A stretch of DNA of 64,000 nucleotides from Planctomycetota bacterium (GTDB lineage Bacteria; Planctomycetota; JAJSAM01; JAJVHW01): the NCBI GenBank assembly GCA_965248445.1, contig CBDFJG010000004.1, forward strand, positions 800,001-864,000. Direction: 5' to 3'. Position 1 is the stretch's first letter; every line of letters begins with the position of its first letter. Position numbers and translations under genes: made by a program. This document shows positions 10,944 through 12,313 of the stretch, piece by piece. The notes beneath the pieces are model-generated. The model was not told the DNA's origin. It saw only the letters and a program-made list of their open reading frames with translations, and did not search any database.

Positions 10944-11951
10944 GTGGCGAAGAGGCGCGGAACCGTCGTCGTAGACCGGATCGACAGCCGCGTGCTGCGC
11001 GGGAACGCTCTCGGCGACCCGCACGAGCGCGATCTGCACGTCTATCTGCCTCCGGGATACTCGAAGGGCAGCCGCCGGTATCCGGTGATCGTCCTGATCG
11101 TCGGGTTCACCGGGATCTCCGAGAACCCGTATCAGCGCGGGTACTTCGGGGAGGCGCTGCAGGACCGGATGGACCGACTCATCGCGGCCAAGAAGGTGCC
11201 ACCGATGCTCATCGCGACGCCGGACTGCGTGACAGCGCTCGGCGGGAGCCAATACGTCGACTCAGCGGCGGTCGGCCGGTACGAGACGTTCGTCGTCAAG
11301 GAGGTGGTGCCGCACCTGGACAGCCGGTTCCGCACCAAGCCCGCCGCGCGCCACCGGGCCATCTGCGGCAAGTCGTCGGGCGGCTACGGCGCGCTCATGC
11401 TCGGGATGCGCCACCCGGGCGTGTTCGGGTCGCTGGCCTCGCACTCCGGCGACGCGTACTTCGACTACTGCTACCGCGGCGACTTCCCCACGGCGTGGAA
11501 CACTCTGCGCGCCGCGGGCGGGCCCGAGAAGTGGCTCCGCGGGTTCCAGAAGCGCCGGGTGAAGAAGCCCGGCGGTGGCGACATCCACACGGTGAACATC
11601 ATGGCGATGGCGGCCTGCTATTCACCGAACGCCGAGGCCCCGTTGGGATTCGACCTGCCGTTCGACCTCGAGACAGGTGAGGAGCGGGCGGACGTCATGC
11701 GGCGATGGCGCGCGAAGGACCCGGTCGTGGCTTGCCGCCGCTACGCCAAGAACCTGAAGAAGCTCCGCGGAATCTTCATCGACTGCGGGCTGCGCGACGA
11801 GTGGCACCTGCACATCGGCGCACGCGTCCTGTCGCAGCGCCTCACCGAGCTCGGCATCCGCCACGTACACGAGGAGTTCGACGACACGCACCGGAGCATC
11901 TCGTACCGCTACGACGACTCGTTCGCGTATCTCGGAAGATGGACGCAATGA
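10944..11951 (+). CDS. Putative esterase (alpha/beta hydrolase, Fes/enterochelin esterase-like)
   Basis: VYLPPGY, GKSSGG nucleophile elbow, DCGLRDE and EEFDDTH. GTG start after GAGGTG. Confidence 0.85.
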   Translation: MAKRRGTVVVDRIDSRVLRGNALGDPHERDLHVYLPPGYSKGSRRYPVIVLIVGFTGISENPYQRGYFGEALQDRMDRLIAAKKVPPMLIATPDCVTALGGSQYVDSAAVGRYETFVVKEVVPHLDSRFRTKPAARHRAICGKSSGGYGALMLGMRHPGVFGSLASHSGDAYFDYCYRGDFPTAWNTLRAAGGPEKWLRGFQKRRVKKPGGGDIHTVNIMAMAACYSPNAEAPLGFDLPFDLETGEERADVMRRWRAKDPVVACRRYAKNLKKLRGIFIDCGLRDEWHLHIGARVLSQRLTELGIRHVHEEFDDTHRSISYRYDDSFAYLGRWTQ

Positions 11952-12313
11952 GTGACCGGAGCCCACCCACTAATCTCGACGGAATCGGAATCAGGCGGCG
12001 GATGGTCGGCGCGGGCGTCATGCTGCTCGGCGCGTGCGGGATCGCGTGGTGGTCGGGGACCGCCGCCGCTCCGAGCTGGTCCCGCTGGGTCGCGCTCGTA
12101 CCGTTCACGATCGGGGCTCTGAGTGTGTTCCAGGCCACGGCCGGGACCTGAGTGGTCCGAGCCGCGCGCGGTGCGCGCGAACGAGGCGGAAGGGTCGAAC
12201 CCATCCTGGACGCCGCGCTGCGCGACGCGATCCGCACCCGCGCTCGCGGCGTCCTGCTGCGCACCGCCGCCGCGATCGCCGCCGGCGCGCTGGCACTCGT
12301 GCTTCTCCCGTGA
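11948..12313 (+). CDS. Small membrane protein with in-frame UGA at 12149-12151; candidate selenoprotein (121 aa)
   Basis: ATG overlaps the esterase stop (ATGA). The frame stays open after TGA and encodes a further amphipathic and TM helix ending at TGA 12311-12313. A SECIS-like hairpin lies 11 nt after the UGA. Confidence 0.65.
12152..12190 (+). promoter_or_regulatory. Putative bacterial SECIS element
   Basis: UGA + 11 nt + CGCGCGC-GGU-GCGCGCG (12163-12179); a possible lower stem pairs UCCG (12156-12159) with CGGA (12187-12190). Confidence 0.55.

Follow-up and report, generated by a model that had tools for sequence, protein, structure and literature searches.

A small three-helix membrane protein with a probable in-frame selenocysteine in a planctomycete, from an uncatalogued Sec/Cys family

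In this work, we found that an in-frame TGA in a small membrane protein gene of a planctomycete almost certainly encodes selenocysteine (Sec), as judged from comparative genomics. The gene occupies positions 11948..12313 (+) of the 64,000-nt stretch of DNA analyzed (hereafter, the window), and the TGA is its codon 68 (12149..12151, +). Translation, full-length homologs, and an AlphaFold2 model together describe the product as a 121-aa protein with three membrane helices, very probably the Sec-containing member of an uncatalogued membrane protein family in which Sec and Cys alternate at a single position. A sequence-only reading of the same DNA had proposed a selenoprotein here, and the Cys alignment, the TGA-bearing orthologs, the Sec genes of the genome, and the published bSECIS criteria all favor that proposal.

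The reading frame consists of 67 codons, the TGA at 12149-12151, 53 further sense codons, and a terminal TGA at 12311-12313; residue 68 lies in the context FQATAGT-U-VVRAARG. The ATG start at 11948 overlaps the stop codon of an upstream esterase gene (Pfam match to PF00756; 10944..11951, +; start codon inferred) as ATGA at 11948-11951. A gene of the uracil-DNA glycosylase superfamily (Pfam match to PF03167; 12349..13068, +), given here as context only, begins 35 nt beyond the end of the selenoprotein gene. Retranslation reproduced the reading frame, the ATGA coupling, the 53 post-UGA codons, and the 35-nt gap exactly as first described. No sigma-70-like promoter was found. GC3 downstream of the UGA is 0.83 in frame vs. 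0.88 in the next frame, a difference that does not discriminate the frames. Gene callers truncate the gene, as had been anticipated: the database proteins P0003, P0004, P0153, and P0154 stop one residue before the UGA, and P0006 begins just after it. A word-indexed search queried with this protein alone returned the truncated form of the same protein as the sole match.

The identity of residue 68 was assessed in homologs from a phmmer search against 1.84 billion representative proteins, for which the query carried C at 68, a choice that favors Cys-containing hits. Among the 138 homologs recovered, column 68 is the best-conserved column of the alignment, followed by N9, R18, Q62, A72, and G75. 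It holds C in 135 sequences, G in one (P0137), and a gap in two, both of which are gene-caller fragments that end before or start after the UGA. Trp, one of the residues named beforehand as speaking against Sec, is found in none. Conservation flanks the UGA on both sides (N9, R18, and Q62 upstream; A72, G75, and D88 downstream), and the Cys that had been proposed for similar small proteins is thus real.

The codon itself was examined in an unrestricted six-frame HMM search of 301 genomes of the same phylum, with codon 68 left free. The search matched 30 genomes: 25 with full-length copies, four with short Cys forms (74-92 aa), and one spurious. Among the 25 full-length copies, codon 68 is TGA in 20 (own genome, G000, included), TGC in four, and Ser in one, with no TGG. 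The ortholog with Ser at the Sec/Cys position (L051, G001:C18) shares its genome with selA, selB, and selC. Beyond the phylum, a motif scan of species genomes, in which the amino acids were fixed, synonymous sites were free, and codon 68 was confined to TGA, TGC, or TGT, yielded at least 119 loci, of which at least 118 score as family members. Three loci of the whole analysis, L029, L059, and L155, were set aside because they match by chance. Codon 68 is TGA in 89, TGC in 22, and TGT in seven of the motif-selected members among the matches listed (n = 118), so that TGA orthologs of the kind that the sequence-only reading had suggested searching for are plentiful in both sets. In 62 of 63 TGA loci compared, among the matches listed, the reading frame stays open beyond the TGA for 52 codons or more.

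The TGA copies among the matches listed carry ten or more phylum labels, some of which may be wrong because they come from MAGs: Gemmatimonadota, Myxococcota, Acidobacteriota, Chloroflexota, Methylomirabilota/Rokuibacteriota, Binatota, Planctomycetota, Poribacteria, Tectimicrobiota, Zixiibacteriota, Ignavibacteriota, and Spirochaetota. On a quick, unrooted maximum-likelihood tree with 141 rows, from which one duplicate, the Ser form, and the short forms were omitted, the Sec/Cys label changed at least 15 times, with three changes forced by well-supported (starred) branches and their direction unpolarized.

These distributions make it very improbable that the TGA is a true stop, that is, that the coding sequence finishes at codon 67, or that the locus is a pseudogene or a split gene with a 3′ part that is separate or unmade. 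In databases, the 67 residues before the TGA and the 53 residues after it do appear as separate entries (P0003, P0004, and P0006), GTG directly follows the TGA in many orthologs, and short relatives of 74-92 aa exist (L055-L058, in G181, G017, G243, and G272, respectively). However, the interrupted orthologs of the phylum have TGA in 20 of 20 cases and never TAA or TAG, the TGA sits on the one near-invariant Cys, and the short relatives, which are two-helix proteins, keep this Cys and end 11 codons past it.

The frequency of Cys forms (29 of 118, among the matches listed) might be taken to favor read-through of the UGA as another residue (Trp, Cys, or Gly), an explanation that is scarcely credible, as is a sequencing error. 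TGA is the commonest stop of this genome, ending 1075 of 1704 long, high-GC3 ORFs, which rules out recoding across the genome, in agreement with what had been concluded from the window. Furthermore, the sole TCA-anticodon tRNA found by ARAGORN at its default threshold is tRNA-Sec, and column 68 holds no Trp. As for sequencing error, contigs from three of four sequencing runs span codon 68 with zero differing letters, showing TGA rather than TGC or TGG, although all four runs derive from one sample that may be the assembly's own source; more than 100 other genomes of the phylum and motif sets share the TGA.

Consistent with Sec decoding at codon 68, the four Sec genes sought in G000 are all present and over their cut-offs: selA (502 bits, cut-off 268), selB (336 bits, cut-off 242), selC for tRNA-Sec (68 bits, gathering score 47, with which ARAGORN agrees), and a Sec-type selD with one in-frame TGA. 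This selD (L018; G000:C3:1080793-1081719, −) has the Sec context GGG-U-ACK and folds without a GGU loop at +22; the hairpin was considered as a parallel to that at codon 68 and discarded, as the folds bear no resemblance. Within the phylum, selA was found in 19 of the 20 TGA genomes and the twentieth carries selB and selC, such that Sec machinery is present in 20 of 20. Outside the phylum set, selA was found in 48 of 50 TGA genomes (50 of 89 tested, among the matches listed). The background is high, with selA over cut-off in 219 of the 301 phylum genomes; this is a large proportion for Sec use, and the selenoproteome of the lineage looks under-explored. Because most Cys-form genomes also have selA (27 of 29, among the matches listed), the Sec trait is consistent with the Sec reading but does not separate Sec from Cys forms. 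In the Cys-form genome G182, which is 99% complete, none of selA, selB, and selC was seen.

Downstream of the UGA, the MFE fold contains the bSECIS hairpin CGCGCGC-GGU-GCGCGCG at +15 to +31 (12163..12179, +; U of UGA = +1), with G22-G23-U24 (12170-12172, +) in the loop. It lies exactly 11 nt past the UGA, where the sequence-only reading had placed it. With a loop of 3-5 nt, a stem of 5-7 bp, a UGA-to-loop distance of 18 nt, and an energy of −13.5 kcal/mol, the hairpin falls within all four ranges of the bSECIS consensus as given in the available part of a 2026 catalogue (loop of 3-9 nt with G[G/U], stem of 4-16 bp, 16-37 nt from the UGA, and MFE <= −7.5; PMC13188914). For DNA with 69% GC, its energy does not exceed what chance would give (z of −0.44 over 62 nt, and −0.01 and −0.81 for two other folding windows). 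In this genome, 189 of the 1075 ordinary TGA stops that end long ORFs are followed by a loose bSECIS-like hairpin, and 0 of the 1075 by the exact geometry, in which GGT at +22 closes a 5-bp stem. Taken alone, the hairpin is weaker evidence than had been implied.

The pairing also required revision. Across the 20 TGA orthologs, G22 and G23 are invariant. The 3-nt-loop register initially proposed has 69% of cells paired, and it was rejected as the covarying structure after showing no covariation beyond shuffles (71/500). In a register shifted by 2 nt (GGUNN, 5-nt loop), 12165-12169 (+) pairs with 12175-12179 (+) around a GGUGC loop in the window gene; 79% of cells are paired, C19-G29 forms in 20 of 20 orthologs, covariation beats 500 of 500 shuffles, and RNAalifold chooses this register. 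The element itself therefore stands, but the shifted register with its 5-nt loop is the better supported one. As a control, 20 Cys-form genes show covariation at the shifted stem as well (3/500 shuffles), with 59% of cells paired vs. 79% in the Sec forms. Because the Cys-form genes covary there too, the stem pairing owes partly to the codons of A-R-G-x-R or to recent Sec ancestry, and covariation was downgraded as Sec-specific evidence.

A synonymous codon bias at Gly75, the loop-forming codon, is a cleaner SECIS signal than covariation. Among the matches listed, 52 of the 89 Sec genes use GGT for Gly75 vs. 3 of the 29 Cys genes (Fisher P of 4e-6, which is overstated since the orthologs are kin and not independent), and other Gly codons are GGT at 14% in Sec genes, 11% in Cys genes, and 13% genome-wide. 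The mean MFE of +13 to +36 is −10.6 kcal/mol in Sec genes vs. −7.1 kcal/mol in Cys genes, again among the matches listed. The recoding mechanism is standard SelB decoding: SelB-GTP-Sec-tRNA(Sec) would bind the GGU-loop hairpin 18 nt past the UGA, and Sec would be inserted at codon 68. Where Sec is not supplied, the ribosome would terminate after residue 67, and the product would lack the third membrane helix as well as the reactive residue.

The protein was modeled by AlphaFold2 with C at position 68 and 126 sequences (pLDDT 96.3, pTM 0.87), giving helices at 12-38, 45-65, 69-74, and 89-119 and a beta hairpin at 76-85. Hydropathy, the model, and conservation place TM1 at about residues 19-37 (12002..12058, +), preceded by the conserved N9 and R18, and TM2 at about residues 47-65 (12086..12142, +), which bears the conserved Q62 and ends three residues before Sec68. 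A basic, probably cytoplasmic segment follows (12152..12253, +), comprising helix 69-74, the beta hairpin, and the start of helix 89-119. The final membrane helix, TM3 (about residues 103-121; 12254..12310, +), is made only on read-through; its prediction from the sequence is borne out by hydropathy of up to 1.9 and by the model. The K+R counts are 4, 1, and 10, with 10 in residues 62-105 vs. 1 in the TM1-TM2 loop, which by the positive-inside rule suggests an N-in topology in which Sec68, just past TM2, faces the cytoplasm. The product would then be an inner-membrane protein that begins inside, forms a hairpin of TM1 and TM2 with Sec68 where TM2 reaches the cytoplasm, and continues through the basic helix and beta hairpin to TM3. 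CxxC is absent from the family. Members may carry a second, optional Cys, either ahead of N9 or at 77; among the matches listed, this applies to 40 of 87 Sec forms and 24 of 26 Cys forms. The window protein has a Cys at neither place and carries only a non-conserved C30. A homodimer prediction for one Cys homolog scored 0.00, which speaks neither for nor against a dimer.

The genomic neighbors are mostly unconserved. An esterase gene lies directly upstream in six of the seven loci examined from the genome's own taxonomic family (f1) and is not a recurring neighbor elsewhere among the motif loci; it was therefore rejected as a functional partner, the arrangement being lineage-specific synteny. 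The PF03167 gene is clustered beside the selenoprotein gene in only three loci. Of 167 flanking ORFs picked, which may include shadow ORFs, 140 were scanned, and about 68 had Pfam matches spread over many families. Directly upstream of three loci is a ResA/TlpA-like gene, with UxxC in the TGA loci L049 and L054 and CxxC in the TGC locus L052, such that its state switches together with that of codon 68. One locus precedes a metallo-beta-lactamase-rhodanese gene. In L045 and L048, a protein with a GBBH-like N-terminal domain (PF06155) and a CPCAxC motif is encoded directly upstream of the Sec form.

In five related loci, the domain is fused in frame to DedA and rhodanese domains; the five form one clade and hence represent one event. 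Three fusions, namely, L081:3070-4446(+), L089:3863-5233(−), and L122:1610-2980(+), keep a second TGA in the context YCS-U-PNE, and the closest model for their rhodanese part is NF041203 (about 80 bits vs. a cut-off of 115). The other two are interrupted earlier: L071 by an in-frame TAG, and L118 by divergence within the DedA part. A protein-level search for longer forms with fused domains came up empty, a result of little weight given that fusions exist at the DNA level, and no paper combining a selenoprotein with DedA and rhodanese was found in the open literature.

Because of the DedA-rhodanese fusion, the UxxC/CxxC neighbor, and a weak likeness to YgaP, we tentatively propose that the protein may act as a membrane-surface relay. 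Its single conserved selenol or thiol could be a cytoplasm-facing nucleophile that exchanges sulfane sulfur or selenium with rhodanese- or thioredoxin-type partners, taking it up and handing it on, or that is joined to them in a mixed disulfide or selenyl-sulfide, in a manner like that of the Cys-bearing TM domain of YgaP/DUF2892. Against this proposal stand the unconserved neighbors, the single-clade fusion, an hhalign probability of 2.4% to PF11127, and the absence of a CxxC-type motif. It is somewhat unlikely that the protein is instead a one-residue membrane scavenger of peroxides or electrophiles, or a redox sensor, with thioredoxin-like recycling and no sulfur transfer. AhpC/TSA or TlpA-like neighbors at L049, L052, L054, and L060 would suit such a role, as would the redox nature of most catalogued selenoproteins, according to the available part of the catalogue (PMC13188914). 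Such neighbors, however, occur at four of about 100 loci, and no peroxidase motif is present.

Binding of a soft metal (Cu, Hg, or As) by Sec at the membrane, as in three-helix MerT transporters, is unlikely. The size and number of helices are similar, one MerT is a catalogued selenoprotein, and many members have the second Cys described above; in addition, one clade (13 of 80 motif loci with long flanks, among the matches listed) follows genes ending in an HlyD/biotin-lipoyl-like protein. However, no PF02411 match was found among 126 members at E 0.01, hhalign to MerT gave 0.8%, no Cys pair is present in TM1, and the window protein lacks both optional Cys. The HlyD/biotin-lipoyl clade (L067, L074, L076, L077, L093, L097, L098, L108, L113, L114, L119, L130, and L132) is mostly Acidobacteriota and has a conserved three-gene run upstream. 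Sec and Cys forms are intermixed in it, with the second Cys at 77 in most of the Cys forms.

The family appears to be unnamed, uncatalogued, and widespread in bacteria, being absent from the selenoprotein lists compared (BSepDB left out). No NCBIfam or Pfam family reaches its cut-off. Among 126 members searched at E 0.01, 10 NCBIfam and 15 Pfam families were hit, none of them a catalogued selenoprotein model; the scan covered NCBIfam and Pfam, leaving out a few entries of PMC13188914 Table 1 that have only cd or PTHR identifiers, and three NF models from that table were verified to be in the scanned library. Table 1 itself, in the part of the 2026 catalogue available, lists 119 selenoprotein families with no such entry (PMC13188914). 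In the available portions of two other sources, new selenoprotein families are unrelated going by their descriptions (PMC12013277), or no new family is named (PMC13745706). No description of the family surfaced in the literature covered, which excluded subscription journals and BSepDB. An alignment-based word-indexed search gave 15 protein matches, mostly unnamed or "hypothetical," and the clusters of 10 homologs were either nameless or called "hypothetical protein," except for one labeled Stt3, a name that was set aside because it was backed by no Pfam scan. Searches of solved structures found no match by sequence (best E 0.19) or by Foldseek at E 0.001; the best VIA-align Z was 7.2, to generic helical bundles, by which a new fold is neither shown nor excluded.

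With this family, the bacterial selenoproteome would gain a small, polytopic type of membrane protein that has a single Sec and is neither thioredoxin-fold nor metalloenzyme. Most of the members sampled encode Sec, and these carry ten or more phylum labels. Its genes are split in public annotation, and one HMM could repair many records. The natural Sec/Cys pairs in close relatives and the double-Sec fusion offer material for testing the benefit of Sec at a membrane surface. A more far-reaching reading, that of a missed family that ranks among the more widespread bacterial selenoproteins, mostly Sec where sampled, with an undescribed membrane fold and a hand-off of selenium or sulfane sulfur with DedA-rhodanese selenoproteins, is quite doubtful. 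If true, it would make the family a candidate for little-known steps of selenium trafficking and would explain why Cys forms are mostly in genomes with selA.

The recoding element resembles the E. coli fdhF SECIS, in which, according to the available part of the source, the stem-loop spans 15-31 and G23 and U24 are the key loop bases (PMC8659212). Both are in-ORF stem-loops at +15 to +31, 11 nt past the UGA, with G23/U24 in the apical loop. Unlike fdhF, the bulged U17 is absent, position 17 being occupied by a C that is paired, both in the window gene and in 13 of 20 orthologs; the GC-repeat stem of the window gene can pair in two registers; and U24 is present in just 58% of Sec genes among the matches listed.

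Among membrane proteins, MerT (PF02411; C/SxxU, putative mercuric transport selenoprotein) is likewise a small three-helix membrane protein with Sec/Cys. In MerT-domain sequences, however, a CC pair is in TM1, whereas the residue of this family follows TM2, and hhalign against 14 MerT-domain sequences reached its 0.8% probability over only 11 columns. The rhodanese-related (seleno)protein NF041203, with CxU, is the "rhodanese-like form 3" of Table 1 in the available part of PMC13188914; it matches just the fused rhodanese domain and not the three-helix domain, and the window gene is unfused.

The family also bears a weak likeness to E. coli YgaP, which consists, according to the available part of the source, of a rhodanese domain and a two-helix TM domain bearing C159 (PMC4730233). 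PF11127 (YgaP-like TM, DUF2892) is the most frequent weak Pfam match, hitting 7 of 126 members (best E 4.4e-5) but remaining below the Pfam cut-off wherever bit scores were shown, and the window protein has no match; it is also absent from the available part of the selenoprotein catalogue (PMC13188914). Aligned by hhalign to PF11127 members, the family reached the 2.4% probability at E 0.02, with Cys aligned on Cys. The four short relatives end 11 codons past a GWC motif, and two of them have weak PF11127 scores; they are possible intermediates between DUF2892 and the three-helix family. Like YgaP/PF11127, the family has a two-helix hairpin with an Arg opening TM1 and one conserved Cys closing TM2, and it is found fused to rhodanese; unlike PF11127, it also has TM3, a basic helix, and a beta hairpin.
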